Made by a program: the position numbers and the translations under genes | Sequence record: PZ091942.1 | Strand: one strand, 5' to 3' | DNA: 64,000 nt | Source of the DNA: a phage | Notes under the pieces: generated by a model | The model's database searches: none | What the model saw: the letters and a program-made list of their open reading frames with translations, nothing else | What the model was told of the DNA's origin: nothing | Shown here: one piece after another, positions 7,201 through 29,657 of the stretch | Numbering within the stretch: the first letter of the stretch is position 1 | How the letters are laid out: every line of letters begins with the position of its first letter

Positions 7201-7308
7201 ATATTTTAAGAGCAGGTTATCCACAGATATTGGGTGATATCTATTTAATTGGCCTTAAAGCTTGGCTCTCTTAGGAGAGTCCTTTTTTAAGTTCAAAGAA
7301 GAGGTTGT

Positions 7309-7846: not shown

Positions 7847-9067
7847 ATGTTCCCTGTAACACTTCAAAGCTGGAAAGAATCAGAAGATGTTGTAACCGTC
7901 TGGCCTCCTTGTTATGGTTTCCTTAAAGCAGGTTACTATCAGGGTGGTGATTATGATGAAGATGATGAAGACGATGATCCTGACTACTACAACACGTATG
8001 ACAGCAACTACGGCTGGAATATCCGCATCAAGGTGTGGAGTAAAAATATGATGGTTCGTCAAGGCACTGCTGAAGAGAACGTTCTTGAGAATATGTTGCC
8101 TATGTCTGAAATCAAGTATATCTGGAACTCCGGAACACATCTTCCAGCTTACGGTGTAAGACGTTATGGTGATACTGAATATATCGCTACTCAGTATTTC
8201 CGTGAAGGGTTAGAAAATGAAGACCCTCGTCCTCCTTCTCATGTGGAAACATGGGCAGAAGAAAACAACCGTCCTGATATCACTGATCGTGTTGTTATGG
8301 AAACCTTTGCAGCATTCATGGATAAAGATCTTGACTCATGTCTGGTGTGGCATGAAGTAGGGTTCATGGGTGTTTGCACTGATGGCTGTCCCGCTGATCG
8401 TGCTCTGTTCTATCTGATGTTGAATCGCACATTCTATACAGATGATGAAAAATCTGCTGTGTATGAAATGTTGAACAAGATGTATAAGAAGGGCTGGTCT
8501 CCTTTAGCCTCTCTTGCATTCAGCCGACTTATCAACTCTTCAGTGGATGTATTCGGTAACGAACGTGTTGCTTTAACAGGGAATGATTACGATTCCTGTA
8601 TCTTCCAAGCATCTCTGTATACAGTGGGTGTTGGTAGTACGATGATTGAGCCTCGCCAGACCAAATGGCGACAGTGTGAATACACTGAAGGTGAAGGCCA
8701 CCTGCGTGATGAAGACTTCTCCAGTCTGATCTATCGCAGTGAAGGTGTTCGTGATTGTCGAGTGAACAACTCGATGTTCTTGCCAATCCTTTTGCCTCAA
8801 TATTGCCATCTGTCAGAAGATACCCGCCCAATCATCACAGAAAAGTCACTCTTGGTTGAATTTATCCGAGAGGTGACTGAATCTGAAACATCTTTTGCTA
8901 AAATTGTGTTCGGTTATAACTGGAACAATGAAACAGCTTCAGCTCGAAGCTACAACATGTATAACATTATCAGTAGTATGTCCAATGGACTAACAGGTAG
9001 TAATTATACAGTACGTCCCTCAGAAGAGTGGGAAAACATTTTGGAAAAATTATTCTTCAATAAATAG
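7847..9067 (+). CDS. hypothetical protein (first gene of candidate modification operon)
   Basis: ATG with AAAGAGG RBS; 406 aa with acidic DYDEDDEDDDPDYY stretch; no recognisable motif. Confidence 0.55.
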   Translation: MFPVTLQSWKESEDVVTVWPPCYGFLKAGYYQGGDYDEDDEDDDPDYYNTYDSNYGWNIRIKVWSKNMMVRQGTAEENVLENMLPMSEIKYIWNSGTHLPAYGVRRYGDTEYIATQYFREGLENEDPRPPSHVETWAEENNRPDITDRVVMETFAAFMDKDLDSCLVWHEVGFMGVCTDGCPADRALFYLMLNRTFYTDDEKSAVYEMLNKMYKKGWSPLASLAFSRLINSSVDVFGNERVALTGNDYDSCIFQASLYTVGVGSTMIEPRQTKWRQCEYTEGEGHLRDEDFSSLIYRSEGVRDCRVNNSMFLPILLPQYCHLSEDTRPIITEKSLLVEFIREVTESETSFAKIVFGYNWNNETASARSYNMYNIISSMSNGLTGSNYTVRPSEEWENILEKLFFNK

Positions 9068-9075
9068 AGGCGAAT

Positions 9076-10026
9076 ATGTCAATCTCCGCATCGACTGCTC
9101 CGGTAACACCATCAGAGGATTTTGGTGAGTCAGTGTTCAGAGGGCGAGCTTGTTTTGGTACTTTCAACTGTCAGCATATGTATTCTGTTACAGACATTAA
9201 CGGCGACAGTATCAATCGCTCAAACCTTCGTGACAGAACTTCAGAAATTGGAGTTATCAACTTCTGGCCTCACAACTTTTATGGCACACCAGCTAAAGAT
9301 ATCGAAAGAGCTTTAGTTGAAGCAACAGACATTTTTAACTCAATGTCTTGCTATAAAAACATGTTCTCTGTCACTTCGGTGAACTCAGTTGCCGTGAACC
9401 TTCGAGACCACCCAGCAGACAAGGTGTTTACTGGATTAATGACCCTCCGGAGTTATCTGGATGGGGATTTTATGGGAATGGAGTTCCTTCAGGAAGGCGT
9501 TCAAGACAAGGAAGAGTTACTCAAGCGACAACGAATCGGCTTAGCTTTACGCTTAGCTGGTTTAAGTCGTAACTTCTTTGGTCGTTGGGATTATTCACAC
9601 GATGTGGATACTGATGATGAATCAGCAGCGACCTATTTTAATGGTGACATGAGTGCAATTGCATTCTTGCCACTAGTCTGTACCACTGATGAATTTTCTG
9701 AAAACGTATGGGTTCAGAATGTGTTCGGTATTGACGATAACAGAGATGGTTATGTACGAAACCACAATGACGGAGTTCTCCGCAGTATGGCTCGTCGTCG
9801 TGACCAAGACCCTGACTATTACGAAAGTATGAGTGAGTGGTTACGTCTCTGGTCAATGTGTGCAGGCCACAAACGTGAAGTATTAGATCAGCGTATGGAC
9901 AGAATTACTGTTCAAAGTTTTATTGAACGTCTGATGCAAGCAGTACCTTCCTCAATGACACCAGAAGAAGCTGGTGCCCGTGTTGTTTCCCTTTTTGATG
10001 AACTCGTGGAGTATTACAATGACTAA
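9076..10026 (+). CDS. hypothetical protein (operon member)
   Basis: ATG with AGAGG RBS; 316 aa; no recognisable motif. Confidence 0.55.
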   Translation: MSISASTAPVTPSEDFGESVFRGRACFGTFNCQHMYSVTDINGDSINRSNLRDRTSEIGVINFWPHNFYGTPAKDIERALVEATDIFNSMSCYKNMFSVTSVNSVAVNLRDHPADKVFTGLMTLRSYLDGDFMGMEFLQEGVQDKEELLKRQRIGLALRLAGLSRNFFGRWDYSHDVDTDDESAATYFNGDMSAIAFLPLVCTTDEFSENVWVQNVFGIDDNRDGYVRNHNDGVLRSMARRRDQDPDYYESMSEWLRLWSMCAGHKREVLDQRMDRITVQSFIERLMQAVPSSMTPEEAGARVVSLFDELVEYYND

Positions 10027-10825
10027 GCGTGCTTTCCTTATTGGTTCTGACCCTGAAATGTTTGTTCGTACCGCTTCTGGTATTATCACCTCTGTGGCTG
10101 GTAAGCTGGGCTGTTCCAAAGATAACAAAATCGATCTGGCCCCTGATGTTCGTCTTCAAGAAGACAACGTTCTGGCTGAGTTCGATATTAACCCACAGAA
10201 AGGGTTTGAAGCGTTTGATGATAACATCCAGCGTGGTATTGATCTGACCAACAAAGTTCTCCATGAACGTGGTATGGAAGCTGCACTTGGGATTAGCTCC
10301 CATGTGTACACTTCTGAAGAGCTGGAATCATTCCACCCGTCAGCCTTCGTATTTGGCTGTACTCCTGATTTCAACGCCTTCACTGGTCAGAAAAACCCAT
10401 CTCCGGTAGCGACAGACAAAGGTCTGCGTACCGCTGGAGGTCACGTTCACCTCGGTGTTACTGGTACACTGGAAATTAGTCGTCAGACTCAGATGATGCT
10501 GGGTGTGCTGTGCGATTACTTCCTGTCACTTCCAGCGGTTGTGATGGACAAGGACACTCGTCGTAAAGAGCTTTACGGCAAGGCATCTGCGATTCGTTAT
10601 AAAGATTACGGTATTGAATATCGTTCTCTGTCAAACTTCTGGATTGGTGAACAGTCCACTCGTAAGTTTGTTTACGATCAAGTTGATAAGGTTATTCAGG
10701 GCTGTGACATGGAAACCCTCATGTCTCTGCATTCCCGTTTGCCTATCGAAAAGCTTCACAACATCATCAACAGCAACGATGTTAAAGAAGCGGATAAGTT
10801 CTCCTCTCAACTTCAGATTATCTAA
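10019..10825 (+). CDS. hypothetical protein, possible carboxylate-amine ligase-like (weak)
   Basis: ATG 10019 overlaps upstream stop (ATGACTAA); track start 9974 rejected; GSDPEMF..GCTPDF..GGHVHLG motifs. Confidence 0.5.
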   Translation: MTKRAFLIGSDPEMFVRTASGIITSVAGKLGCSKDNKIDLAPDVRLQEDNVLAEFDINPQKGFEAFDDNIQRGIDLTNKVLHERGMEAALGISSHVYTSEELESFHPSAFVFGCTPDFNAFTGQKNPSPVATDKGLRTAGGHVHLGVTGTLEISRQTQMMLGVLCDYFLSLPAVVMDKDTRRKELYGKASAIRYKDYGIEYRSLSNFWIGEQSTRKFVYDQVDKVIQGCDMETLMSLHSRLPIEKLHNIINSNDVKEADKFSSQLQII

Positions 10826-10834
10826 GGTGTTATC

Positions 10835-11461
10835 GTGAGCCTGTTAAGAGATTTTCAGCATTATTATTGCGGAACATGGATTGCCCAACGTGCAGAACGA
10901 GGGATTAATCTCCCTCTGTATGTACTCAACGTAAGCCAACCAAGCCGCTTTGGGGAAGATGACTTCTCCCACGAAGCCGAAATGGCCTTGACCTTTGAAG
11001 TTGAACGCTGGTCTAAGAACTCCGAAGGGCAGTTTGAGCGACAAGTTGTTCAGGGTATCCCTGTGTTTGATCAGAGTCTGATTCTGGAATCTCCAGATGT
11101 GGGCTATCTACAACATGGTAACAACATGGTAAGCTGGACTCATATCAACCCTGTTCGTCAGCGAGCTAAAGGTCTGATGGGGAACAAGCTGCGTGGTGCA
11201 CCTCCTTCAATGGGACGTTCAATTCCGGGAGAGCTGGTGTATAACCTGTTCAACCCTGACTTTGAAGGTCTGGTTACTCGCTTCATCTACATTAACCCTG
11301 TTGATGGTAAAGTTTATTACAAAGGGGCGCTTGTAGGTCAAGTTGATCTTTCTGCTGGTTACGGCGACAACGGTCGTCAATCTTTAAATCTTCTGGAGAA
11401 GTTCAAGCATATTTCTTCAGACCTGTCATCATATAATGTAGAGTTGGTGGAAACGTTATGA
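10835..11461 (+). CDS. hypothetical protein (operon member)
   Basis: GTG start after AAGG; ends in ATGA overlap with next gene. Confidence 0.45.
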   Translation: MSLLRDFQHYYCGTWIAQRAERGINLPLYVLNVSQPSRFGEDDFSHEAEMALTFEVERWSKNSEGQFERQVVQGIPVFDQSLILESPDVGYLQHGNNMVSWTHINPVRQRAKGLMGNKLRGAPPSMGRSIPGELVYNLFNPDFEGLVTRFIYINPVDGKVYYKGALVGQVDLSAGYGDNGRQSLNLLEKFKHISSDLSSYNVELVETL

Positions 11462-12558
11462 CAACCGTAGCACAAGTTTTTGGATACCGTAATGCTCGTC
11501 TGGCTGAGCCGCACCCAAGCATCGCTTTTCAGTGTGGTATTGGCATCGAGCTGGAAGTTGAAGGAACCTCTGAAATTGATGCAGACCTTTGGGTTTGTAC
11601 TGAAGATGGTTCACTTCGTGATGGCTGTGAGATGGTTTGCGCACGGCCTTACAACGGTGTAGAATTGCTTCGTGCTATTAACAATCTGAGTGAAGCAGTA
11701 CAAGACTCTGAAGCTGAAGGGACTTGGCGCTGCTCTACTCATGTTCATATGGATATGCGTGACGCTGATAGTAACATCCTGAAGAAAGTAATTCTTGGAT
11801 GGACGTTCTATGAAAAGATGATGTTCAAATGTTCTGGATACCATCGCTATCGTAGCAACTTCTGTCCTGCCTTTGCTGTTGTTCAAGCACAGGTAATGAA
11901 TGCTTCCGCAGCGTTCAACCGAGATGGTGAAGCCTTCTTCAACACTCTTGTTAATAGCTGGGACAAGTACACCTCCCTTAACCTATTACCTCTGGCTCAG
12001 TTTGGTTCTGTTGAGTTTCGTATCTCAGAGCCGAAGTGGAAGAAAAGCCAACTCCTGAATCTGGTCAACCGCTTCTTGGTTCTCAAGAAACTGGCTGTTG
12101 AATATGCAGATTTGGACAATGAAGCATACGTTGAGAAACTGAATGAGCTTCGCTTCGCTCCTATGATTCAGTATCTACCTCTGGACTACACGCCTAATGA
12201 TAATGATCTTACTGAAGGTTATCGTTTGGCTCGTGACATTCTGTTCTGTCGTGAACGTTCGGTTACTCTGGTTGGTCGTGTTCGTGTACAACAGACTGGC
12301 CCTGATGGTGAAGTCCTTATCAACTTGCGTGATATGGGTGACTTCTATGGTTTCTTGGGATATGTACGGGGTAATGCCAACTCTGTTTACGAAGAGATCA
12401 TGACATATTACACCCCTCAGATTGAAAACACTCGAATCGCAACGGTTCGTGAAATTCGTCACATGTTTACTTTGATGCGTGAATCAGGTAGCAGTGATGA
12501 TAACGTCACTGGTTATATTCCAGACCATCTGGAAATGCAATTAGAACGACTGCTGTAA
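11458..12558 (+). CDS. GS-like amidoligase (carboxylate-amine ligase family, putative)
   Basis: GIGIELEVEG ... TEDGSLRDGCE ... STHVHMDMRD pattern resembles glutamine-synthetase-fold amidoligases. Confidence 0.5.
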   Translation: MTTVAQVFGYRNARLAEPHPSIAFQCGIGIELEVEGTSEIDADLWVCTEDGSLRDGCEMVCARPYNGVELLRAINNLSEAVQDSEAEGTWRCSTHVHMDMRDADSNILKKVILGWTFYEKMMFKCSGYHRYRSNFCPAFAVVQAQVMNASAAFNRDGEAFFNTLVNSWDKYTSLNLLPLAQFGSVEFRISEPKWKKSQLLNLVNRFLVLKKLAVEYADLDNEAYVEKLNELRFAPMIQYLPLDYTPNDNDLTEGYRLARDILFCRERSVTLVGRVRVQQTGPDGEVLINLRDMGDFYGFLGYVRGNANSVYEEIMTYYTPQIENTRIATVREIRHMFTLMRESGSSDDNVTGYIPDHLEMQLERLL

Positions 12559-12635
12559 CACAATGGGCGCTCTGATAAAGGGCGCATTTAAAGGTTAATT
12601 AGATGAAAGGGTTTACCCTTCAGGTGGATTAGAAA

Positions 12636-14669
12636 ATTTGTGGTATCGTATTAGCTGGGGGCAACATGACCTCCACAGACTTAGACGTATTCAACCAGCT
12701 TCTGTATGCCGGAGTCTTCCGTGGTCAGCACTCAACTGGTGTGTTCGGTCAGCGTAAAAGTGATGCAAGAGTGTTTTCTTATAAAGAAGCACTTCCTTCT
12801 TATGCTTTCATGCTTCAGACAGAGTACACGAATATTACTAAGGGGCTTACGAACTATGTAGTTCCTCCAGCGTGGATTGTTGGTCATAGCCGACATGCCA
12901 CTCGTGGCGCTGTCAATGCTCGAAATGCTCACCCGTTCTCTCATGGTGACATTACTCTGGTTCACAATGGTACATTGATGGACCAAGAGCTGTTACCTGA
13001 CCATAAGAACTTCGAAGTTGATAGCGAAAACATCTGTCATTCAATCAACACCATTGGTGCAGCAGAGACTATCCAGAAGTTGGATGGTGCGTTCACTTTA
13101 ATCTGGCATGATGCCAAAGACAATACTCTGCATATCATTCGTAACGATGAACGTCCTTTCCATCTGGCCCGTTGTGGTCTGGATTGGTTTGGTGCTTCTG
13201 AAGAAGATATGTTGATGTGGATTCTTAATCGTTCCAAGTCACACAAGAACCGTATCAATGATCACTTTGAATGTAAAGTGGGAACTGAATACATCTTTGA
13301 TTTGTCTGGCAACCGTATGACTCTGACTCAAGAGGTGGAGCACAAGCTTCCGGTTTTTACGGTAACGAGTCGCTGGGGCGGCTATTACTCGAACTCCTCT
13401 CTATATCAGAACCAACAGACAAACAAATCAAGCAGCAGCACAAGCGACATTTACGGAAACAAAGACGACAAGCCCGGCGTGACAAGCGGGGACATTCGCC
13501 GTCGTAAAGCGATTGAAGATCAGAATAAACTGGCTGCCGATCGTGGTCTTCCATATCGTCGTGATGGTCGTGTGGATATCATCCCTCACGAGTTCCATGC
13601 TTACAACAACACTGACCGTGGTAAGATGGTTGGTTATATTTATGATGATGCTGCTCAAGAATATGTTGAGGGTGATGTTCATAATGTAGCCAAGAGTGAG
13701 TACTTGAAGGCTCTCGAAAACCCAAAGGTAGTGTATCGCGGGACAGTTGCTTGTATCTCCGAAGTGGACAGTATGATTCGCCTCGTACTCACTTCAGGGC
13801 TGTTTGTTGATGCTACCGATAAGGAGCCTCAAAGCACTACCGCTGATTTTGATGATGATATCCCTTTTGATTTAGAAGACTCCTTCATCACTAAGAATGG
13901 TGTGGAAGTCACTCGTAAGTTCTGGGAATCTCATTCTCATGGTGATTGTGGCGGTTGTGACAAGCACATTGAATGGAAAGATGCTAAGAAAGCTGTGTTC
14001 GCTTACCAAGCATATTGGCATCCGGCCTGTTTCGAAGCATTGTCCAAACCATCGGAAGAAGATGAAGACATCCCTTTAGGTGTCTGTGCTGTGTGTGGCA
14101 ATGTTAAAACTGATTTCGAGTTTGATAACGAAATGAGTAAACTTCGTGGTGAAGATATTTGTTATGTCTGTGCCAAAGAAATCAAAGACAAAGTGACTAA
14201 CACTACATTGTCTGAAGGTTACATTTGGACTAAAGCAGTTGACACAACTAACCCACGCCGCCCTGAAGTAGCAGTTCGTGTTGATCAGCGTATGCTTAGC
14301 CGGATGATCGTAATGGTTAGCTCAGCTAAGCGTTCTGGAGACATTGAACTGTCTGATGTTCCTAATTCTTATTTGGAGAAACGTGGTGGTGATACTTATG
14401 CCATCTCTGTTTATGGTCCAAAGAATGCCCCAAAGGAGGTGCCCGCTGAGAAAGCGGAAACATTTCCAGAAAAACAAACAACTCTCCGAAAAACAGTTGT
14501 CAGTTACGATGGACAGCGAACAGCTGAGTTCACAAAAGCCCTCTGGACTTCAATTGGGTTTTGTGCAGTCTGTTATAAACAAATTCCGTGGCGTGATGCA
14601 GAAGTTTGCTCACTAAACAAAGAAAACAGGGTGATCTGTAATTCAGATTACTGTAAAGGTAAACATTAA
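12636..14669 (+). CDS. class II (Ntn) glutamine amidotransferase domain protein with Cys-rich C-terminal domain; probable AUU start
   Basis: GHSRHATRG..NAHPF..HNG motifs; in-frame CGIV lies upstream of track ATG 12666 with no stop between; AGGTGG 8 nt upstream of ATT 12636; C-terminal CxxC pairs. Confidence 0.6.
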   Translation: MCGIVLAGGNMTSTDLDVFNQLLYAGVFRGQHSTGVFGQRKSDARVFSYKEALPSYAFMLQTEYTNITKGLTNYVVPPAWIVGHSRHATRGAVNARNAHPFSHGDITLVHNGTLMDQELLPDHKNFEVDSENICHSINTIGAAETIQKLDGAFTLIWHDAKDNTLHIIRNDERPFHLARCGLDWFGASEEDMLMWILNRSKSHKNRINDHFECKVGTEYIFDLSGNRMTLTQEVEHKLPVFTVTSRWGGYYSNSSLYQNQQTNKSSSSTSDIYGNKDDKPGVTSGDIRRRKAIEDQNKLAADRGLPYRRDGRVDIIPHEFHAYNNTDRGKMVGYIYDDAAQEYVEGDVHNVAKSEYLKALENPKVVYRGTVACISEVDSMIRLVLTSGLFVDATDKEPQSTTADFDDDIPFDLEDSFITKNGVEVTRKFWESHSHGDCGGCDKHIEWKDAKKAVFAYQAYWHPACFEALSKPSEEDEDIPLGVCAVCGNVKTDFEFDNEMSKLRGEDICYVCAKEIKDKVTNTTLSEGYIWTKAVDTTNPRRPEVAVRVDQRMLSRMIVMVSSAKRSGDIELSDVPNSYLEKRGGDTYAISVYGPKNAPKEVPAEKAETFPEKQTTLRKTVVSYDGQRTAEFTKALWTSIGFCAVCYKQIPWRDAEVCSLNKENRVICNSDYCKGKH

Positions 14670-14680
14670 GAGGTGAAGTT

Positions 14681-14914
14681 ATGGAAGTTCGTAAATTGAT
14701 GTTGGATAACGTTGTAACCACTCGACGTATCCCAATGACAAGCACAGGATGTGACAACCTTCGAGCTATTCAGAAATGGATGCAAGAGGGTATTGGGGGA
14801 CTGGTTAACTCTCCAGTTGAAATTCCTTTCCCAACCGTTATCAACAACGTGTTGGCTGACTATGTGAAATTGAAGGGGATTAAAGTTGAGCCTCATGTCA
14901 AGCAAGGGAGCTAA
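14681..14914 (+). CDS. hypothetical protein
   Basis: ATG with AAGAGG RBS; 77 aa. Confidence 0.45.
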   Translation: MEVRKLMLDNVVTTRRIPMTSTGCDNLRAIQKWMQEGIGGLVNSPVEIPFPTVINNVLADYVKLKGIKVEPHVKQGS

Positions 14915-15116
14915 GCCTCACCTGACAATGCTGGAGTATCAACAACTCCGACTTCAACAACTGGTAACGGAGCAGCGAAAGCTGTATCCGTTTGCTTTTA
15001 ACCTAATTGATTCACCAAGCGATGACCAAGAAGACGAGATGTTCGCCAAGTATTGGGAAATCGAAGTTAAAATTCAATCCTGTCGTAACGAAATTCTTAA
15101 ACTAAAAGGTATCTAA
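14886..15116 (+). CDS. hypothetical protein (start uncertain)
   Basis: Track start is TTG; in-frame ATGs at 14895 and 14928; no clear RBS. Confidence 0.35.
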   Translation: MSLMSSKGAKPHLTMLEYQQLRLQQLVTEQRKLYPFAFNLIDSPSDDQEDEMFAKYWEIEVKIQSCRNEILKLKGI

Positions 15117-15118
15117 AA

Positions 15119-16366
15119 ATGACTACTCGTATCCGTGTTCTTCCGTATGGCCCTTCTGATTCTGTTAACGCTCTGGTAACTGCCATTAATGATACTATCC
15201 GTGATGAACGTATCAACGCTAACGTAATGGGTCTTCTTTCAGAGAACAGCCGCTGGCGTTCTCGTGAAGGTGATGTGGTTGTGAACTACGGGAACCGTCG
15301 CTATCCTGAATCATTCTTTGGTTCTGCAACTGTTCTGAACAGCACAGCATCTCTGCATATGGCAGCGAACAAGCGTCGTGCTTTTAGCGTGATGGACCAA
15401 GCAGGTGTTAAAACAGTTGAATATACAGATGTTCAATCAACTGCTCAAGAGTGGTCAAACTCTGGCAATATTGTGTATGAGCGTCATGAACTGACTGGTC
15501 ACTCTGGTTCAGGCATTGTTGTTGTAGAGCCTCGTGATTCGGTTGGTCAAGCTGAACTGTACACCAAAGGTATCCTAGGCCCACGTCGTGAATGGCGTGT
15601 CCATGTGTTCAAAGGTGCTATCACCTATGTTCAGAAAAAGATTCGTCGTAACGGTTATCGTGAAGACCCTAACTATCGTGAAGATGTTCGTAACCATCAC
15701 ACTGGTTGGGTTTACTCAAGTTCCTTCACAGACGTTCCGAACGACACCTCTCTGATCAACGCAGTGAAAGCTGTTGAATCAATGGGTCTGGATTTCGGTG
15801 CAGTTGATATCATCACCAAAGGTCAAGAAGCATGGGTACTGGAAGTTAATACAGCACCGGGCCTAACTGGCACAACTCTGGATATCTACCGTCATAATAT
15901 CCTTGAGTTTGTTAAAGCTCAAAACCCTCTTTATACTCCTCAGTATAAAGTAGTTTACCAGACTCCTGTTGAAGCTCCAATCGAAGACGGAGACGGTGAG
16001 TTGGTTGCTGACAGTGAAAGTGCTGACGATGAAAACTTTGCACTGGAAGGCCAAGTAGCACAACCGGTTGATTCAGTTGATGTGGTTCCTGAAGAAATGC
16101 AACTGGAAGGTCAGATGAATACTCAAACTATTCGTAATGCACCTACTGGTTATGTGTTGTCTCGTGGTTATTGGATTGCCAACATCCGTCATGTTCATAA
16201 CAACCTGCAACCAAATGCAATGGCTGCCAATGTCATTCTGTTCTGTGATGGTCGTAACTTCTACCGCTCTGGTTGGAACGTTCCGGTCAATCCAGTCCAG
16301 ATTCATAACCCTCGCAAGTTAGAATCTGTCAATGTTGAAGGTAGTGAAGTAGCAGTAACTCTGTAA
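15119..16366 (+). CDS. ATP-grasp ligase (RimK-like)
   Basis: GHSGSGIVVVE and GAVDIIT..EAWVLEVNTAPGL match ATP-grasp nucleotide-binding motifs. Confidence 0.65.
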   Translation: MTTRIRVLPYGPSDSVNALVTAINDTIRDERINANVMGLLSENSRWRSREGDVVVNYGNRRYPESFFGSATVLNSTASLHMAANKRRAFSVMDQAGVKTVEYTDVQSTAQEWSNSGNIVYERHELTGHSGSGIVVVEPRDSVGQAELYTKGILGPRREWRVHVFKGAITYVQKKIRRNGYREDPNYREDVRNHHTGWVYSSSFTDVPNDTSLINAVKAVESMGLDFGAVDIITKGQEAWVLEVNTAPGLTGTTLDIYRHNILEFVKAQNPLYTPQYKVVYQTPVEAPIEDGDGELVADSESADDENFALEGQVAQPVDSVDVVPEEMQLEGQMNTQTIRNAPTGYVLSRGYWIANIRHVHNNLQPNAMAANVILFCDGRNFYRSGWNVPVNPVQIHNPRKLESVNVEGSEVAVTL

Positions 16367-16392
16367 TTAAATTAAACAAAAAGGAATTTGTA

Positions 16393-16635
16393 ATGTTGTC
16401 TATCGAAGATTTGATCAGCCGTGGAATGACCGAAGAAAAAGAGCCTCTGATTGTAGGCTCTCGTAAAGCTATTAACCAACTCTGTGAAGAGTTTGGCATC
16501 ACAAACAAGAGAATGATTGGTAATCAGTTCTCTGCAATCATCACCTTCCTCAAACGAGGTGATAAATATTCAATGGAATGTGTTGAGCGTATCATCGCAA
16601 TTGCACAAGAAGATAAGGGAGTAACAACTCTGTGA
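16393..16635 (+). CDS. hypothetical protein
   Basis: 80-aa ORF with ATG after AAAAGGAA. Confidence 0.45.
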   Translation: MLSIEDLISRGMTEEKEPLIVGSRKAINQLCEEFGITNKRMIGNQFSAIITFLKRGDKYSMECVERIIAIAQEDKGVTTL

Positions 16636-16817
16636 ATAAATATACAATCATGTTTCGTACAGTATCAGCAGAAGGGAATATTCAATCTCTGGACATTCAA
16701 GCAGACCGCTTTGAATCACTTGGAACAAATGTTAATTTCTTCCGAGGTGCAGAGCTAGTAGGTATGTTCCAATCTGATGTATTGACTGGTGTGATCAAAC
16801 ACTTCGAAGTAGAATAA
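16632..16817 (+). CDS. hypothetical protein
   Basis: 61-aa ORF coupled to upstream gene; followed by TAGCC..GGGCTA-type hairpin at about 16825-16848. Confidence 0.4.
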   Translation: MNKYTIMFRTVSAEGNIQSLDIQADRFESLGTNVNFFRGAELVGMFQSDVLTGVIKHFEVE

Positions 16818-16874
16818 TTTGCTTTAGCCTCTTCGAAAGAGGGGGCTAGTTCGAATTTAACTGGAGGTTGTAAA

Positions 16875-17291
16875 ATGGTTGATAATAAACTGGATATGTT
16901 TAAAAGTCGTATCTTAGATGTAGAGTATTCCAAAAACCTCTTTGAGAAACATAAGAAAGAGGCAAAGGAAGAATTAGAAAGTCTTCTGAAAGATGAAGAG
17001 ATTCCACTCTTTAATCGCTGGTGCCTGTTTATGGAGCACAGCTCCCTTTTCCCTGTGGCTTCTAGCTCTATCAGCAGAGCTGTTAACTATGCAGTAGACC
17101 GTTATTATGACTTGGAGAGATATCGAACCTACACCCTCTCTGATATTTTTGAAGAGTATTGGTTCAAGGAAAAAGAATTGTCGAACAGTGATCTTGTGGA
17201 AGCTGTTAAGGAGAGTTTTGAACTAATCTCTGAAAAAGATGTTCGATCAATCATCTTCTCCGGATATTCTGGTTTCCTATACGATTGGTAG
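16875..17291 (+). CDS. hypothetical protein
   Basis: ATG with GGAGG RBS; 138 aa. Confidence 0.5.
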   Translation: MVDNKLDMFKSRILDVEYSKNLFEKHKKEAKEELESLLKDEEIPLFNRWCLFMEHSSLFPVASSSISRAVNYAVDRYYDLERYRTYTLSDIFEEYWFKEKELSNSDLVEAVKESFELISEKDVRSIIFSGYSGFLYDW

Positions 17292-17297
17292 ACAGTC

Positions 17298-17495
17298 ATG
17301 AAAAAGATTTTACTCCTCCTCTCCTTATTCAGCGTATCAGCAATCGCCGCTGATGAATGCATCTCTAAAGATTCAGGGAGAGGTCAAATCGTAACTCAAT
17401 GTGGCAGCCATGTAACGGTTGTCGATTCTATAACTCAAACAATTCTCGTGTGTAACGGGACTTCTTGTACAAAAGAAATTCTAAACAAAAGGTAA
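17298..17495 (+). CDS. small secreted Cys-rich protein
   Basis: Signal-peptide-like MKKILLLLSLFSVSAIA then six Cys in about 45 residues. Confidence 0.45.
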   Translation: MKKILLLLSLFSVSAIAADECISKDSGRGQIVTQCGSHVTVVDSITQTILVCNGTSCTKEILNKR

Positions 17496-17499
17496 TGTA

Positions 17500-17931
17500 A
17501 TGTCTGATAAAGTATTAGTTGCAACGTATGGTTCTCTTCGTAAAGGTCAACACAACCACGCTATCAATGCTCGTGCCGGTGGTGTGTCTATTGGTGAAGG
17601 GTGGACAGTAAACAACTGTAACCTGTATCAGTATTGCACAGCATACTTCCCAAGTGTATCTCTGGTGCATGACAGCAATGGCAAGCCTGTTCGTGTAGAA
17701 GTCTTTGAAACAACCCAAGCTGGTCTGGAAGGTCCGTATGACGGTCTGGAAGGTTATCGTGGTAAAGACAATCCGTACACCTTCTATAATCGTACACTGA
17801 TTCCAGTAGTGCTGGATAATGGTGAAACTGTGGAAGCATGGATTTATCATATCGACGAAGAACAAGATGTTCTGGTTGAATCTGGTGACTGGACAGCGTA
17901 TCTGGCAGGTGAACAGGATGACAGTAACTGA
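17500..17931 (+). CDS. gamma-glutamyl cyclotransferase-like (GGCT/AIG2 family)
   Basis: N-terminal YGSLRKG motif and downstream VEVFE acidic residue typical of the GGCT fold; AAGG RBS. Confidence 0.6.
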   Translation: MSDKVLVATYGSLRKGQHNHAINARAGGVSIGEGWTVNNCNLYQYCTAYFPSVSLVHDSNGKPVRVEVFETTQAGLEGPYDGLEGYRGKDNPYTFYNRTLIPVVLDNGETVEAWIYHIDEEQDVLVESGDWTAYLAGEQDDSN

Positions 17932-18124
17932 GCGACAGAAGCTGAGAAAGCTTGAGTCTGATTACTTAAAGTTACGGTGGAAGATTAACCGTTATGATAA
18001 GTTTGTCAGTATGCTTGACCGCAATAAACATTCTGAAGATTTTATCATGAGAACCCAATCAGCTTTACAGGGTTTTAAAAGTCTTCAAGATGATGTGTGG
18101 GAAGAAATACGTTCGTTTTATTGA
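17918..18124 (+). CDS. hypothetical protein
   Basis: In-frame ATG of track ORF 17819-18124 chosen to minimise overlap with GGCT gene. Confidence 0.35.
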   Translation: MTVTERQKLRKLESDYLKLRWKINRYDKFVSMLDRNKHSEDFIMRTQSALQGFKSLQDDVWEEIRSFY

Positions 18125-18160: not shown

Positions 18161-19951
18161 ATGTCAAAGATCATCCTAGGAGATACAGGTTGTAAAGAAT
18201 GTATCTCTCATGGTCGTGATAAGACCCACAATCACATGATTCTCTTCCGAAATGAAGAGTCCGGTGAAGAGTGGGGCAGTTGTAATCGTTGTGGTAGTTA
18301 TGAAGTTTTCGAAAAGGGAACAACTCCTACACCGAATGAGAAGAAAGAACTATCCCCTGAAGAACTCCGAGAGATCTTAGACGATTGCTTAGAGCTACCT
18401 CAGGGTGAGCTTACTCGTCGTTTGATTCCTAAAGCTGTCTCTGAACGGTATGAATGTCGTATTGGTTTAAGTCAGACAGATGGGCAAACTCCTGACAGTT
18501 ATTTCTTCCCTCGTGAACGTGATGGAAACATTGTTGGTTATGAAGTTAAGCTTCTGGACAGCAAGAAGTTCTATTACATTGGCAGTGTTAAAGAAGCCGA
18601 CTTGTTCGGCATGGCTCAAGCACAGCGTGGTGATGTATACAACAAGAAGCTCTTCATCTTTGAAGACCCACTTTCTTGTATGTCTGGTTTCCATGTGCTC
18701 ACTGCGTTCACGAACGCTACAAACATCAAACCTGCTTGTGTATCTCTACCGTTCGGTGCAGGTTCAATCTCTTCCGTTCTATCACGTAACCGTGACTTCT
18801 TGAACGGTTTTGAGGAGATTGTACTCTGCATGGACAATGATGATGCGGGTGAGATTGCATTAACTAAAGGTCGTGCATTATATCCACATGTTAAGTTTGC
18901 TCGTATTCCGAAAGGAACCTTCACTTATAATGGTCAAGAGAAGGAGATCAAAGATGCGAACGACATGTTACTCGCTGGTCGAGGTCAAGAGCTATTCAAC
19001 AATCTGAAATACTCAGCGAAGCGGGAATCGCCTGCTGGTGCTGTTACTGTCTTTGATTGCTTAGAAGATGCTCTGAAGAAAGCGGAATGGGGTATTCCTT
19101 ATCCGTGGAAAACTCTGAATGAGATGACCTTCGGCATTCGTTGGGGAGAGATGGTTGCTATCGGTGGTGGTGTTGGTTCAGGTAAAACCTTAATCGCACA
19201 CGAACTGGTAGCATGGCTTTGCCTTGAACATGGTTTTAATGGTGGTGGCTTCTTCTTGGAAGAGAAGGTAGGCATGTCTGTTAAGAACATTGCAGGTAAG
19301 TCAGCATCTGTACCTTTCCACCGACCTGATGTTGAGTATGAGGAAGCTCAGTTACGTGACGAAGCACTTCGTTACGCTGATAAGTTCTTCTTGTATGACA
19401 ACTTCGGACAGAACGAGTGGGATGATATTAAGCAGTGTATTCGCTTCTGGGTAGTCGAGAATCAGTGTAAGTTTATCATTCTTGATAACATTACTGCGCT
19501 AGTCTCTCACCTAACTCCGTCTGAGGTGAATACAGAAATCAGTAAGATTGCTTCAGAGCTTGCTGGTATGTGTAAGGAATTAGACTTCACTGCTTTTGTA
19601 TTATCTCACTTGAATGCTCCGGCAGGTGGTGCTCCTCACGAAGAAGGTGGACAGGTGAAAGAAGTTCAGTTCACTGGTTCACGTTCACTAATGCGTTGGT
19701 GTCAGTGCATCATCGGTTTTGAGCGAGATAAGCAAGCTGATGGGTTAGGCAAGAACTTGTCAATCATACGACTCCTCAAAGAGCGTAACTATGGTCAGAC
19801 AGGTGTTTGCTACACCAAGTACATCAATGAAACAGGTCGACTTGTAGAACGAGAAGATCATGAAGTTGATGAAGCTAATCCGTTTGTCTTGACCAATGGT
19901 GAGGATGCAGCTTCTCTGCTCACACAAGACGGGGAGGCACGACCTTGGTAA
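18161..19951 (+). CDS. DNA primase-helicase (T7 gp4-like)
   Basis: AAGGAGG RBS; N-terminal zinc ribbon CKEC..CNRC, Walker [10 protein letters not shown], Walker B FIILDNIT. Confidence 0.85.
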
Positions 19952-20493
19952 AGAAAATATTCGCCTTCGATATCGAGGGTGATAATCTTTATGAGGGCAT
20001 CCAAAATGTCTGGTGTATCTGGATATTTGATGCTCTTACAGGTGAACGGTGGGGGTATCGCCCTCACCAAATTGAAGAAGCTCTTCACAAACTGAAAGAA
20101 GCTGATGTAGTTGTAGGTCATAACATTATCGACTTCGACCTTCCAGCTCTCTTTAAATTCTACTCTCATGTAATACCTTTCCACTTCAATGTCTTCGATA
20201 CACTTTGCCTGAGTCGTTATCTCAAGCCTGACCGTATTGGAGACAATCCAGAATACCCCAAAGGCGACCCTAGACATGGCCCTCGTGGTCATGGCCTCAA
20301 GCAATGGGGCGAATTCCTGGGTGAGCTGAAGGGTGATTATGGTGAGCAGGAAGAAGCATGGGATGCATTCACTGAAGACATGTTCACATATTGTGAGCAA
20401 GACGTTAACTTAACAGTTAAGGTTTACATGTGTCTTTGCCAAATGGCAGGATTTGATTATAAGAATCCCCCATCTCTCAACTGGAAAATGTAG
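19945..20493 (+). CDS. 3'-5' proofreading exonuclease (DEDDy, DNA polymerase exonuclease domain as separate gene)
   Basis: Exo I FDIEGD, Exo [13 protein letters not shown], Exo III YCEQD; TTG start with GGGGAGG RBS, overlapping helicase stop. Confidence 0.75.
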
Positions 20494-20495
20494 AA

Positions 20496-21944
20496 ATGAT
20501 TAAGATTCCATTGTCTGAATTGAACCTTCAAGAAGGAGAAGCCCTCAGTGTAGGGCTTGACCTAATTCGTAATTTGATCAGAGATAACGTAGTCCCTGAT
20601 GGTATCTATCCTGTCATTGCAGGTGGTGCTATCCGTGATACGTTCTTCCAAAATCGAACTCCGAATGATGTTGATATCTTCCTAGTTCAAGGAGGGCTTC
20701 GTTGGAACACTCGTCAGGAAAACAGCCCTGCTAACGTAGGTAATGCTGCACTTTTCCTTGACAACTTCTTATCTTGGACAGAAAGTAAGGGGCTTCAGGT
20801 TACATCTCGACTAATTCAGCCTGTTAACGGGACAACCTATGCTGAAGCGCTTTTCACTTTCCAAGAGATTCTGGAAATTGAGATTGATCAAGTTAAAATC
20901 CAGATGATGATTAATCTACCTTTGGATATGGATACTTTAAGCCGTCGCTTCCCTATGATCTGTCAAGGGTTTATGACTCTTGGTAATCTGTATGTGTCAA
21001 ACGAAGGTTTGTTTGCAATGTCATACACTCGTGACATTCCTGTGGTATCTAGTCGTGAAATGAAGTACGTTCACAAGAAGTGGCCTGAAGCAACTGTTGC
21101 AGTTTATAGCAGTTCTACCGAATATATGCACCTTGCAATGGGAGCTTTCGGTGAGCCAGAAGTTCACCTGATTAGTGATTTAGTTGGACCTATGGCTGGT
21201 GTAAATTTATATCAGAATCAGCGTCGTCATTATACCCTGAAGATGATGGAAACTATATTAAACATTCCTCAGGAAAGGGGTCGTAGTTATCTGGACGAGG
21301 AAGTTAACCTACAGACAGAATGGTCTAGTGGATTAACCACTATCGGTGCTGAAGCAATCACACAACCTTGGACTCCGGGAACCAACAGACGTGACTCTTG
21401 GCAACAGGAAGTCCCAAGATTCGCAGCCCCTTCTACAATGGACCCTCGTAATACTTTTAATGGCAGTTTTGGTAGTGCACGTTCTTCTGGGACGGACACC
21501 CACAACCGTACATGGCATGTTCAAGGGGGAACTGCTCGTCCTATTCCTTCTCCGTCAATGGGTGATTTACAGCGTTCTCGTCGTTCATGGGAAACAGTAA
21601 GCTCAGTTGTTCAGGGTCTACGTGCTGGTGATATAGAACGTGTAGAAGTTGGTGATTTGCCAACCCCTATGGAAGATCGAGTGTCAACTATAGCGGCTCG
21701 TGAAGCTGCTCGTGTTGGTTTTCCATCTTTAGCTAATGATGCTAACAATACTCCTCGACCTGTCGGTCGTCGTAACGGTCTGGCTCACTCTGACACTGCA
21801 CTTGGTGCAGAACTTCGAGCTGCTGCTCGTGAACTATCTGGTGAGCTTCATAACAACTTAGCAGGTGTTACACTATCTCGTGAAACAGCTCGCAACATGA
21901 TTAACAATTTGGCATCATCTGTACAAGGAAATAGAAACTCATGA
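20496..21944 (+). CDS. nucleotidyltransferase (Pol-beta superfamily, CCA-adding/poly(A) polymerase-like head motif)
   Basis: VIAGGAIRDTFFQNRTPNDVDIFLV matches GGxVRD...DxD head-domain motif; C-terminal 200 aa low-complexity. Confidence 0.45.
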   Translation: MIKIPLSELNLQEGEALSVGLDLIRNLIRDNVVPDGIYPVIAGGAIRDTFFQNRTPNDVDIFLVQGGLRWNTRQENSPANVGNAALFLDNFLSWTESKGLQVTSRLIQPVNGTTYAEALFTFQEILEIEIDQVKIQMMINLPLDMDTLSRRFPMICQGFMTLGNLYVSNEGLFAMSYTRDIPVVSSREMKYVHKKWPEATVAVYSSSTEYMHLAMGAFGEPEVHLISDLVGPMAGVNLYQNQRRHYTLKMMETILNIPQERGRSYLDEEVNLQTEWSSGLTTIGAEAITQPWTPGTNRRDSWQQEVPRFAAPSTMDPRNTFNGSFGSARSSGTDTHNRTWHVQGGTARPIPSPSMGDLQRSRRSWETVSSVVQGLRAGDIERVEVGDLPTPMEDRVSTIAAREAARVGFPSLANDANNTPRPVGRRNGLAHSDTALGAELRAAARELSGELHNNLAGVTLSRETARNMINNLASSVQGNRNS

Positions 21945-22474
21945 GTCTTTTAGGTTCTCAAGAATTACACAGCGTTATTGATAATGGCTTTTTAGATGCG
22001 GAGCATAAATATGTTAACGCTGCTAGCGTGGATATCCGTATTGGTGATACTATCCTTGTTGAAGAACAGGCTGACGGCATTGTTGACATTGATGCTAAAG
22101 AAAACCTCAAGTGGAAAGAAGTAAAAATCCCTGAAGATGGTATCGTTATCACTCCGGGACAGTTCTTCTTAGCTCACTCGATGGAAGAGTTTAACCTTCC
22201 AGATAATATCTCAAGCCTGTTTGTACTCCGCTCCTCAATGGCTCGTTGTGGTTTAAACCACCTCCATGCTGGTTGGGCTGATGCAGGGTTTAACAGCAGT
22301 AAACTAACCTTTGAATTTCATAACGTTACCCATAATCATAGCTTACGAGTTCGTGCTGGGATGCGTGTTGGTCAAATGGTTATGTTCGAACACTCTCACG
22401 CTGGTGATGACTCTTATGCAGTGAAGGGTCGATACAACGGCAGTAATGGTGTAGTTGCATCTAAGGGTGTATAA
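21941..22474 (+). CDS. dcd: dCTP deaminase
   Basis: ASVDIRIGD and LRSSMARCGLNHLHAGWADAGFNS..LTFEFHN match dCTP deaminase/dUTPase-fold signatures. Confidence 0.75.
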   Translation: MSLLGSQELHSVIDNGFLDAEHKYVNAASVDIRIGDTILVEEQADGIVDIDAKENLKWKEVKIPEDGIVITPGQFFLAHSMEEFNLPDNISSLFVLRSSMARCGLNHLHAGWADAGFNSSKLTFEFHNVTHNHSLRVRAGMRVGQMVMFEHSHAGDDSYAVKGRYNGSNGVVASKGV

Positions 22475-24685: not shown

Positions 24686-24964
24686 ATGAGTAAAGTAATT
24701 AAGTTTTATAGTAATTCATGTGCTCCATGTGCAGCTATGGCTCCTGTGTTTAAGAAGGTTGTAGCTGATTACAACGTAGAGGTTGAAGAAGTAAATATCT
24801 CTGAAGGTGATGGTCGAGAGCGAGCCATTGAATACGGTGTTCGCAGTATCCCAGCCTTTGTTGTCCCTGACCGTAATAGTGGTGCACATTATAGTTTATC
24901 AGGTATGCAGACCGAAGCAAACCTGAAAGCATTTTTGGATACAGCTCTGAATGGTAATCGATGA
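24686..24964 (+). CDS. thioredoxin/glutaredoxin-like protein
   Basis: ATG with AAGGAA RBS (track start 24632 rejected); CAPC active-site-like motif and RSIPAF cis-Pro region. Confidence 0.55.
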   Translation: MSKVIKFYSNSCAPCAAMAPVFKKVVADYNVEVEEVNISEGDGRERAIEYGVRSIPAFVVPDRNSGAHYSLSGMQTEANLKAFLDTALNGNR

Positions 24965-25421
24965 TTTAGAGTATATCCCCGAAACTGGAGAGTTCTTCCG
25001 AAATGGTAAGAAGTTAGGAGGAACTCGAAGTAAGTACATAACCCTACGGTTTAAAGGGAAGGTACACAAAGCTCATAAAGTGGCATGGTTCTTTTATTAT
25101 GGAGAATGGCCTTCTTCTCAGATAGATCATATCGACAGAAACAAGAAGAACAACTCAATACAGAACTTAAGACTGGTAGACACTTCGACAAACTGCCACA
25201 ACCAGTTCGGGGCTAGAGTATCAAACAAGGAAACAGGGCTTCAAGGTGTTAAGGTTGTCAAATATAGATCAGGGACTATTAGATATAGAGCTGTTATCTG
25301 TATTGATAAAGTAGACATACATCTAGGTATGTATGGCACTGCCGAAGAAGCCCATCAAGTTTACATGAATCGAAAAAAGGAACTTTTAATTGAACGAACA
25401 ACTACAAGCAACACTGATTGA
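24951..25421 (+). CDS. HNH homing endonuclease (HNH_3/AP2-type)
   Basis: IDHIDRNKKNNSIQNLRLVDTSTNCHN HNH motif. Confidence 0.7.
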   Translation: MVIDDLEYIPETGEFFRNGKKLGGTRSKYITLRFKGKVHKAHKVAWFFYYGEWPSSQIDHIDRNKKNNSIQNLRLVDTSTNCHNQFGARVSNKETGLQGVKVVKYRSGTIRYRAVICIDKVDIHLGMYGTAEEAHQVYMNRKKELLIERTTTSNTD

Positions 25422-26043
25422 AGCAATGGGTAGTGACAAATCTGTAGTCAACGCAGCTAGGGTATCTTTCGGTGTTGTTCGAGAAGGTGACTTAAATGAG
25501 AGAGACACAAAACTTATCAATTTCCTTGCACGGGAAAAACACTGCACGCCTTTCCGTCATCCGACAATTAGCTTCCGATGCAAAGCGCCAATCGCAATTG
25601 CGAGACAGTTGGGCAAGCATCAAGTTGGATTCTCGTGGAACGAAATGTCCCGGAGGTATAAAGATGGAGCAGTTGAATGCTTTGTCCCTGAAGAGATTTT
25701 TGAAAGACCTTCAGACCTCCATGCAGGTTCGGGGAGCCTCCTTATCGGAGCCAATGGTGAAGCAGCAAAAGTAGCCTTTGAACGTGCTTATACTTTAGCT
25801 GTTCAGACATACGAAGGGTTGTTATCAGAAGGTGTTGCACCAGAACAAGCTCGATTCGTATTGCCTCAGGGCATGATCACTGAGTGGGTCTGGACAGGTT
25901 CTTTATTCGGTTGGTCAGAGTTATGTCGTCAGCGACTGTCAGACCACGCTCAGTATGAAGTACGAGTGTTTGCATCAACTATTGATGAAGAGCTTCGTAA
26001 AATCTACCCAATCTCTTGGGATGCATTACGTGAAGCCCACTAA
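25390..26043 (+). CDS. thyX: ThyX-like flavin-dependent thymidylate synthase family protein with non-canonical RHR motif
   Basis: AARVSF, HCTPFRH, KAPIAIARQ, SWNEMSRRY, SDHAQYE align with ThyX; RHR position reads KHQ; start TTG 25390 or ATG 25426. Confidence 0.7.
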   Translation: MNEQLQATLIEAMGSDKSVVNAARVSFGVVREGDLNERDTKLINFLAREKHCTPFRHPTISFRCKAPIAIARQLGKHQVGFSWNEMSRRYKDGAVECFVPEEIFERPSDLHAGSGSLLIGANGEAAKVAFERAYTLAVQTYEGLLSEGVAPEQARFVLPQGMITEWVWTGSLFGWSELCRQRLSDHAQYEVRVFASTIDEELRKIYPISWDALREAH

Positions 26044-26905: not shown

Positions 26906-27226
26906 ATGATTAATGATAATACATTTAGGACTGGTAACGGAAACGAGATTAGTCCTGCTGAAGTGATTAAACGACACAGAACACAGATGCTTATCCACTC
27001 CTATTTGTATTATTGGTTGGATGACCCAATCTGGTCTGACGATAAGTGGCAACAAGTGGCTGATGACTTAACCACCTTGCAGGAGATGTATCCCGAACCT
27101 ATTGGATTCTTTGATTCAGAGTTTGAAGGATGGAACGGTTCTACTGGTATGCATCTCCCACATGACGAGCGTATTGCTTGTATGGCTACTGAAGTATATC
27201 GTTTACATAAGGACAAATCAATCTGA
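26906..27226 (+). CDS. hypothetical protein
   Basis: 106-aa ORF; HSYLYYWLDDPIWSDDKW region of unknown significance. Confidence 0.45.
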   Translation: MINDNTFRTGNGNEISPAEVIKRHRTQMLIHSYLYYWLDDPIWSDDKWQQVADDLTTLQEMYPEPIGFFDSEFEGWNGSTGMHLPHDERIACMATEVYRLHKDKSI

Positions 27227-29641: not shown

Positions 29642-29657
29642 TTATAAGGAGTGGGTG

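Follow-up and report, generated by a model that had tools for sequence, protein, structure and literature searches.

The phiEco32-type operon, in which ATP-dependent carboxylate-amine ligases are encoded together with a class II glutamine amidotransferase (GATase), was predicted from sequence in 2009 and is common to hundreds of phages. As credited by later papers, Iyer et al. 2009 predicted that the amidoligase and the amidotransferase of phiEco32 modify the cell wall, preventing superinfection; PMC4819975 attributes a gamma-glutamyl operon to Hardies et al. (2013); and PMC5498523 (Duhaime 2017) describes a seven-gene "peptidoglycan modification cassette" carried by phiEco32, 7-11, PA11, tf, LUZ24, PaP3 and CW02. 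The role in peptidoglycan modification and superinfection is put forward in this literature as a hypothesis. Here, we analyzed a block of genes at positions 7847-17931 in a 64,000-nucleotide stretch of phage DNA (record PZ091942.1; the window), and we found that it belongs to this known system. The preliminary description of the window regarded the block as its most likely undescribed system, which is contradicted by the Pfam family PF14395 being named after the phiEco32 group and by the cassette having been predicted and named in publications. That description was right on the chemistry and wrong on the novelty, and a specialist would not be surprised by the existence of the block.

The reading that we favor, with a rough probability of one half, is that the module would encode a cytoplasmic pathway of several enzymes, expressed early in infection, by which a glutamate-containing, peptide-like adduct on a small acceptor is built, amidated and trimmed. 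Expression has been observed in relatives: in phage PSA-HP1, homologous genes are transcribed immediately after infection (PMC7082346), and in phage SU10, the ATP-grasp, GATase and gamma-glutamyl cyclotransferase (GGCT) proteins were detected by proteomics (PMC4281155). Two independently evolved lines of the Pseudomonas phage FJK.R9 each acquired missense changes in the amidoligase and the GATase (PMC11450229). To the published picture we add a family of paralogs to which two of the accessory proteins (X2 and, probably, X1) belong, two further conserved members (X3 and DUF7195), an interchange between GGCT and Peptidase_C26 enzymes, the occurrence of the module in Crassvirales, and an ATT start codon of the GATase gene preceded by an invariant leader.

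Along its entire length, the region 7847-17931 shares 96.7% identity with Escherichia phage ECBP2 (Gordonclarkvirinae, Suseptimavirus), and the window is a Suseptimavirus; IME267 and related phages show 89% identity to the region, and 99 phage records were matched altogether. The block consists of fourteen open reading frames (ORFs) on the plus strand, with a fifteenth (17918-18124, plus strand) overlapping its end, and has a coding density of approximately 98%, in agreement with the "about fifteen tightly packed plus-strand genes" of the preliminary description. Four of the junctions between ORFs are overlaps of 4-29 nucleotides, including the ATGA at 11458 and the ATGACTAA at 10019 that had been pointed out before, and most of the remaining ones are spacers of 2-11 nucleotides; the sole sizeable gap, of 77 nucleotides, lies 5' of the GATase gene. 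All genes and elements of the block described below are on the plus strand.

Two genes of the block encode predicted ligases of the glutamine-synthetase (GS) fold. The product of 11458-12558, previously taken for an amidoligase-like protein of this fold, matches Amidoligase_2 (PF12224) with an E-value of 1.9e-6 and 28.4 bits, beyond the gathering score of 22, and phrog_7469 ("amidoligase", 2e-143); the motifs GIELEVE, STHVHMD and VEFR are legible in its translation, and homologs in other lineages have 120-175 additional N-terminal residues. The product of 10019-10825 matches PF14395 ("Phage phiEco32-like COOH.NH2 ligase-type 2"; E-value 3e-8, 33.7 bits, cut-off 25) and phrog_3815 (4e-112), with legible motifs GSDPEMF, GGHVHLG and GIEYR, and, as judged from these matches, is the second GS-fold ligase of the block. 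This gene was one of four large ones between 7847 and 11461 that had been said to lack any recognizable motif, a statement that does not hold for it.

The GATase gene (12636-14669, 677 residues) is assigned to class II of the Ntn amidotransferases, as originally proposed, by a GATase_6 match of 1.1e-14. The GlmS, PurF and PHROG profiles align from residue 2, a cysteine, and a profile of six phage homologs aligned to Escherichia coli GlmS from Cys1 with the R-G-x-x-S-x-G, H-x-R-x-A-T-x-G and H-N-G motifs kept. The glutamine-binding and oxyanion residues (R-x-x-T, N-G and D) are all present, in GHSRHATRG, VHNGT and EVDSEN, being either aligned with GlmS or invariant in the homologs. Class II amidotransferases require an N-terminal cysteine. 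In the GenBank records of ECBP2 and IME267, the gene starts at the ATG at 12666, and the catalytic cysteine is lost; ten codons upstream of that ATG, the frame encodes I-C-G-I-V-L-A-G-G, which corresponds to the MCGIV start that is canonical for GlmS and PurF. A TAG in the same frame at 12630, two codons ahead of the cysteine, makes a start further upstream impossible. Because of this stop codon and of the profiles aligning from the cysteine, the predicted start must be the ATT at 12636, located seven bases 3' of AGGTGGA, and it is with that start only that the catalytic N-terminal cysteine would be exposed. The coordinate 12636 of the preliminary description was, therefore, correct. The ATT-TGT pair is kept in three genera, being found also in EP335 (Nieuwekanaalvirus) and Bas93, both of which lack the downstream ATG; the record of Bas93 annotates the gene (Bas93_0070) from the ATT, and Privateer and GAP52 have ATG-TGT in its place.

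The leader of the GATase gene (12589-12643) comprises 55 consecutive columns that are invariant in an alignment of four phages from three genera, with variable flanks. It contains a nine-codon mini-ORF, MKGFTLQVD (12603-12632), which ends three bases short of the ATT, the Shine-Dalgarno sequence AGGTGGA (12622-12628), and the ATT start itself. Directly 3' of the amidoligase stop codon, a hairpin with a 7-bp stem is predicted (12567-12585); in the alignment, EP335 keeps the stem despite changes in both arms (GCGCUCU/AGGGCGC versus GUGCCUC/GGGGCAC). From these features we infer a tight translational control of the GATase, possibly by termination and reinitiation. The glutaminase domain is followed by approximately 420 residues, made up of a linker of low complexity, a conserved domain of small size, acidic linkers and cysteine motifs. 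In the aligned C-terminal part, there are two clear copies of the zinc-ribbon-like motif W-x(n)-C-x2-C-x3-I-x-W-x-D-A...C and a further cluster of cysteines; no Pfam domain was found in residues ~250-677, where the best match was LIM with an E-value of 0.048.

The third predicted ligase (15119-16366) is an ATP-grasp protein that also has an acidic linker and, at its C-terminus, an additional domain of ~80 residues. It scores 20.1 bits (5e-4) against Pfam RimK, one bit short of the gathering score of 21. The matches to NCBIfam MptN (2.9e-9, 36.4 bits, cut-off 350), NCBIfam rimK_fam (3e-6, 26.7 bits, cut-off 143), RimK in the PDB (4e-3) and phrog_2599 (2e-171) support the superfamily and the general family that had been proposed, rather than an equivalog. 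The best matches (MptN, RimK and CofF) are alpha-L-glutamate ligases, and members of the RimK family add L-glutamate to a glutamate-type carboxylate. By analogy to these nearest families, the phage enzyme would attach L-glutamate to a terminal glutamate carboxylate. The C-terminal domain also exists as a stand-alone phage protein family, phrog_20552 (82 residues), which matches residues 340-406. The minimal versions of the enzymes in phages CVT22 and HHBS10_2 (ATP-grasp of 250 residues, GATase of ~395 residues) are devoid of such appendages, which are thus lineage-specific additions and not part of the core.

The last gene of the block (17500-17931) encodes a GGCT of the GGCT/AIG2/GGACT family, as had been read from the sequence at the outset, with matches to PF06094 (4.7e-16, 59.9 bits, cut-off 22.8) and phrog_2520 (1.3e-42), a legible YGSL motif, and the glutamate of LEGY; its homologs in GAP52, LAh_6 and phage 7-11 are 52-55% identical. 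The modules of CVT22, HHBS10_2 and cr108_1, and those of approximately 60 further phages, encode a Peptidase_C26 gamma-glutamyl hydrolase (7e-18), and no GGCT is annotated in the module regions of the three named phages. Phage phi14:2 has a GGCT, and at least one Rhizobium phage has both enzymes. GGCT and Peptidase_C26 are unrelated and both remove gamma-glutamyl groups. That two unrelated enzymes occupy one chemical slot is the strongest evidence at the level of sequence that the pathway has an obligatory intermediate or product with a gamma-glutamyl bond.

Homologs of the type 2 ligase were found by tblastn in 310 phage records and those of the GATase domain in 329. Among the hosts of the carriers are Pseudomonas, Escherichia, Vibrio, Aeromonas, Proteus, Salmonella, Cronobacter, Klebsiella and Cellulophaga; one of the carriers is a crAss-like phage from the human gut. 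The module occurs in at least six phage lineages, including crAss-like phages. The core order X1-X2-ligase 2-X3-amidoligase-GATase-DUF7195-ATP-grasp is kept in Gordonclarkvirinae, Grimontviridae (Privateer, GAP52) and Lahexavirus (LAh_6), the module proteins of Privateer, GAP52 and LAh_6 being 26-55% identical to those of the window, and the published gene table of the LUZ24-like phage UFV-P2 lists nine genes in the same order followed by the primase/helicase. The enzymes of Zobellviridae (CVT22) and of a PA11-like phage are shorter, and their genes, arranged a little differently, likewise precede the primase/helicase, and in the crAss-like phages phi14:2 and cr108_1, the enzymes are encoded between a DnaG-type primase and a uracil-DNA glycosylase. 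A DNA primase/helicase is annotated downstream of the module in the ECBP2 record, and the placement of the block in the early/middle region next to replication genes, as first described, was confirmed. A co-oriented block encoding a GATase, an ATP-grasp ligase and a gamma-glutamyl-cleaving enzyme near the primase/helicase is present in the window and likewise in IME267, GAP52, CVT22, HHBS10_2, phi14:2 and cr108_1. The neighbors of the module in other phages, GAP52 (720-2330 and 14379-15344) and LAh_6 (692-1615 and 13263-16401), include TerD/TerZ-like proteins; GAP52 encodes an RNA ligase 2 between the ATP-grasp and GGCT genes, and a PRPP synthetase and a nicotinate/nicotinamide phosphoribosyltransferase are encoded near the module of LAh_6.

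Four further proteins are conserved within the module. X1 (7847-9067, 406 residues), X2 (9076-10026, 316 residues) and X3 (10835-11461, 208 residues; phrog_4877) yielded nothing usable in searches of Pfam (E-values up to 10), NCBIfam, PHROGs and PDB profiles; among solved structures, X1 had no match and X2 weak ones only. In a Foldseek search of predicted viral structures (BFVD), X2 matched both tandem genes of GAP52 and LAh_8 and nothing annotated. The tandem genes of Privateer, GAP52 and LAh_6 are paralogs (95%, E-value 4e-8 in a profile comparison), the window X2 groups with them (84%), X1 shares motifs with them weakly, and cr108_1 also has a tandem pair of paralogs at the position of X1 and X2. 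X2 belongs to a phage-only family of tandem paralogs, and X1 and X2 are probable diverged tandem paralogs. The possibility that X1 and X2 are degenerate GS-fold ligases was rejected as unproven, given the lack of the E-x-E, H-x-H and E-x-R motifs and an hhalign probability below 1%, a weak negative since the alignments are shallow and the two genuine ligases likewise fail to detect each other. X3 overlaps the amidoligase gene by ATGA and is translationally coupled to it, and its homologs directly follow the type 2 ligase in Privateer, GAP52, LAh_6, CVT22 and HHBS10_2. There are 36 close homologs of X3 and, in an exhaustive HMMER search of 1.84 billion proteins, 86 representative clusters, and the family is thus small and essentially phage-only; nearly all of the clusters are stand-alone proteins of 170-225 residues, the longer ones contain no Pfam domain, and none shows an informative fusion. 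The 77-residue DUF7195 protein (14681-14914; Pfam DUF7195, 1.4e-18) is always encoded between the amidotransferase and ATP-grasp genes and has counterparts of 36-46% identity in GAP52, LAh_6 and Privateer. It was considered as a carrier similar to Pup or LysW and rejected, its C-terminus not being conserved.

The pathway that we favor can be outlined as follows. GS-fold and ATP-grasp ligases each form one amide bond via an acyl-phosphate, and the three ATP-dependent carboxylate-amine ligases of the module, two of the GS fold and one RimK-like, would each contribute one such bond. Class II Ntn domains hydrolyze the gamma-amide of glutamine or of a gamma-glutamyl compound; the Cys1 amidotransferase would accordingly either supply ammonia from glutamine for the conversion of a carboxylate into an amide or hydrolyze a gamma-glutamyl amide. 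GGCT would then release the gamma-glutamyl group as 5-oxoproline, a part that would be played by the Peptidase_C26 hydrolase in some other lineages, and X1, X2, X3 and DUF7195 may be conserved accessory subunits, scaffolds or catalysts of a new type. The enzyme families, the catalytic motifs, the conserved synteny and, in relatives, the expression are documented, and from them we infer the order of the reactions, whether the gamma-glutamyl moiety would be transient or terminal, and which class of acceptor is used. A pathway for a glutamate adduct is suggested because the same folds run the glutathione/gamma-glutamyl cycle and the pathways that use a temporary glutamate handle. The favored acceptor would be a cytoplasmic compound of low molecular weight, i.e., a metabolite, a cofactor tail or a peptidoglycan precursor, because several lineages have soluble core enzymes of minimal size and the core contains no macromolecule-binding domain; no N-terminal signal peptide was found in the translations of the enzymes, X1-X3 or DUF7195. 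The peptidoglycan hypothesis of the literature would be one form of such a pathway. As anticipated in the preliminary description, the target itself cannot be read from the sequence.

Several observations weigh against a pathway acting on a small acceptor. The full-text literature yielded no experiment that identifies the substrate, and neither a substrate nor a product has been observed anywhere. No fused acceptor or synthase domain was recognizable in the amidotransferase by Pfam profile search; the acceptor is probably a separate protein. The zinc-ribbon-like repeats and acidic linkers of the GATase and the tethered domain of the ATP-grasp ligase fit docking to a macromolecule better than chemistry on a free metabolite, and X1, X2 and X3 are conserved with no chemistry assigned to them. 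Finally, in almost all of the lineages examined, the module adjoins the primase or replication genes, and this is also true of crAss-like phages, whose DnaG-type primase is unrelated, which hints at a link to nucleic acids or the replisome.

The first alternative, which we consider less likely but plausible, is a modification of proteins. A protein of the phage or the host would receive tags of glutamate or peptide, attached or extended by the ligases and then edited or removed by the amidotransferase and GGCT, with X1, X2, X3 or DUF7195 serving as substrates or adaptors. Such tagging has precedents in RimK acting on ribosomal protein S6, LysX acting on LysW, and PafA with Pup, and the RimK-like enzyme, the tethered domains in the window, and the small conserved protein encoded between the enzymes are compatible with it. 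However, DUF7195 has no conserved C-terminal Glu, Gln or Gly, the extra domains are missing in CVT22 and HHBS10_2 and hence are not core, the match to Dop is marginal, and the Foldseek search of BFVD gave no link between X2 and a ligase.

A modification of nucleic acids is, in our estimate, improbable. In this case, the module would put an amino-acyl or gamma-glutamyl group on phage DNA or tRNA, explaining the restriction resistance of Gordonclarkvirinae, which the BASEL study found to be remarkably resistant to restriction-modification with no known modification pathway (PMC11990801). The window carries 30 EcoRV, 13 EcoRI, 6 EcoKI and 128 EcoP1I sites, although resistance to these very systems is reported for the group; avoidance of sites as the cause of the resistance was rejected for these four enzymes, their sites being present. 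The location of the module beside a primase in several unrelated lineages, and the presence of an RNA ligase and a nucleotidyltransferase nearby in some genomes, are also in line with such a role. Conversely, sites for PstI, SacI, KpnI and BamHI, as well as CCWGG and GATC, are strongly avoided, as expected of DNA exposed to restriction. The counts in the window (1-64000), compared with the expectation of a second-order Markov model, are 5 versus 111 for CCWGG, 121 versus 299 for GATC and 20 versus 50 for HindIII, and there is not a single BamHI, PstI, KpnI or SacI site. Furthermore, virion DNA of phage tf, a member of the LUZ24 group whose genes include at least those for the type 2 ligase, amidoligase and GATase, was digested with RsaI, HpaI, EcoRV, SmaI and HaeIII and subsequently cloned (PMC3517423). 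In Pfam, PHROG and NCBIfam searches, the module proteins matched no glycosylase-like transferase, DNA kinase, DpdA or hydroxymethylase, and a scan of further large ORFs in the early/middle region of the window likewise gave no match to a DNA hypermodification enzyme. To our knowledge, the canonical bases have no carboxylate on which a GS-fold ligase could act, which also counts against this alternative. A broader variant, in which a new glutamyl or peptidyl modification would be placed on phage nucleic acid or on the replication machinery, with X1 and X2 representing an unseen fold for the transfer step and the broad restriction resistance as its outcome, is similarly doubtful.

Equally improbable is a mainly catabolic role, in which gamma-glutamyl compounds of the host (for instance, glutathione or peptides from peptidoglycan recycling) would be broken down to yield glutamate, cysteine or nitrogen or to disturb the redox balance of the host: the module can include up to three hydrolytic or eliminating enzymes (the Ntn domain, GGCT and Peptidase_C26), and in cells infected with HP1, sulfate assimilation and the synthesis of cysteine are strongly induced (PMC7082346), which would fit a depletion of thiols or cysteine (a link that is ours and not that of the authors), yet the most conserved part of the module is three ATP-consuming ligases with intact catalytic motifs, and such enzymes are biosynthetic.

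The block contains several further ORFs. An ORF at 14886-15116 (phrog_13464), of uncertain membership in the pathway, is present in the annotations of ECBP2 and IME267 with slightly different starts. Three ORFs follow the ATP-grasp gene, at 16393-16635 (80 residues), 16632-16817 (61 residues) and 16875-17291 (138 residues, DUF7020, Pfam 5e-25), with phrog_8339 and phrog_8591 as further matches of this group; they are lineage-specific, and a BLASTP comparison with a sample of the genes surrounding the module in Privateer, GAP52 and LAh_6 gave no match to any of them. Between the DUF7020 and GGCT genes, we found an ORF of 65 residues with four cysteines (17298-17495) and a Sec-type signal peptide, MKKILLLLSLFSVSAIA|ADEC..., which matched no PHROG family. 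This ORF is intact in ECBP2 and IME267, where it is not annotated, and the IME267 version differs by 3 amino-acid changes among about a dozen nucleotide differences; such a small secreted protein may be of interest in a block for which an action on the cell envelope has been proposed. Upstream of the block, at 7264-7281 (plus strand), there is a terminator-like hairpin, GGCUCUCUUAGGAGAGUC followed by a U-run, which suggests a transcription unit starting with the small ORFs at 7309 and 7473.

Further downstream, the 482-residue "nucleotidyltransferase" encoded at 20496-21944 (plus strand) was mentioned in the BASEL study as a potential hint at DNA modification, and the annotators of SU10 likened this protein to the class II CCA-adding enzyme; no match to it was found in Pfam or among PDB sequences. 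It is flanked by a separate 3'-5' exonuclease gene (19945-20493) and a dCTP deaminase gene (21941-22474). The idea that it is the polymerase half of a split DNA polymerase was ruled out, the true family A polymerase being encoded at 29655-31502. The gene at 26906-27226 (plus strand) encodes a stand-alone, 106-residue protein made up of the N-terminal NAD+-binding Ia domain of NAD-dependent DNA ligases and nothing else (Pfam Nlig-Ia, 8e-34). An HNH endonuclease gene (24951-25421, plus strand) overlaps the start of the gene for the ThyX thymidylate synthase (25390-26043, TTG start), and relatives have HNH insertions at other sites, inside the amidoligase block.

Being carried by at least 310 sequenced phages, the module is among the more widespread conserved sets of phage enzymes that lack an assigned function. 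Many of the carriers are candidates for phage therapy, and FJK.R9 is a therapeutic Pseudomonas phage that underwent laboratory evolution. A solution of the pathway would uncover a new chemistry of host takeover or counter-defense, give a function to four or more families of orphan proteins, among them one that has no match among solved structures, and test the link between the module and the restriction resistance of Gordonclarkvirinae. The BASEL phages Bas86-Bas93 grow on engineered E. coli K-12, making the module genetically addressable. Experiments on it would be worthwhile in view of its wide occurrence, its orphan accessory proteins and the availability of isolates that infect K-12.

The module can be compared with five groups of known systems. 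DNA hypermodification is defined by dUMP hydroxymethylase, 5-hmdU DNA kinase and aGPT-Pplase, or by DpdA with QueC/D/E. The thymidine hypermodification and 7-deazaguanine pathways of phages, reportedly described in Lee et al. 2018 and Hutinet et al. 2019, resemble the module in being multi-enzyme clusters beside replication genes, and amino acids can be joined to DNA; however, the defining enzymes are unmatched in the scanned ORFs, and the ThyX and dCTP deaminase of the window look canonical. In the amidation of peptidoglycan stem peptides by MurT/GatD and AsnB/LtsA, the Glu or diaminopimelate carboxylate of a cytoplasmic precursor is converted to an amide. These systems share with the module a glutamine amidotransferase as well as an ATP-dependent ligase and are the nearest biochemical precedent for the literature hypothesis, whereas MurT has a Mur-ligase fold and GatD is of class I, as opposed to the GS-fold ligases and the class II GATase lacking the AsnB synthetase domain in the phages. 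Glutamate is used transiently in putrescine catabolism (PuuA/PuuD), ergothioneine synthesis (EgtA/EgtC) and butirosin synthesis (BtrJ/BtrG), where a GS-like or ATP-grasp ligase attaches it as a gamma-glutamyl group and where the removing enzyme is PuuD (a Peptidase_C26), EgtC (an amidohydrolase resembling class II GATases) or BtrG (GGCT-like). All three types of remover are found across the versions of the phage module, although there is no homology at the level of subfamilies (EgtC, 17 bits versus a cut-off of 219), and the phage has no polyamine, histidine-betaine or aminoglycoside enzymes. The gamma-glutamyl cycle and glutathione metabolism employ GshA (GS-like fold), GshB (ATP-grasp), gamma-glutamyl transpeptidase (Ntn) and GGCT/ChaC. 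The same four fold classes occur together in the phage module; in contrast, the phage proteins fall below the family cut-offs of GshA, GshB and GGT, and the phage set adds a second GS-fold ligase and four conserved proteins. The closest system is the phiEco32-type operon, with PF14395, PF12224, a class II GATase, an ATP-grasp ligase and a GGCT in the same order upstream of the primase/helicase: it is the same system, and nothing essential differs.

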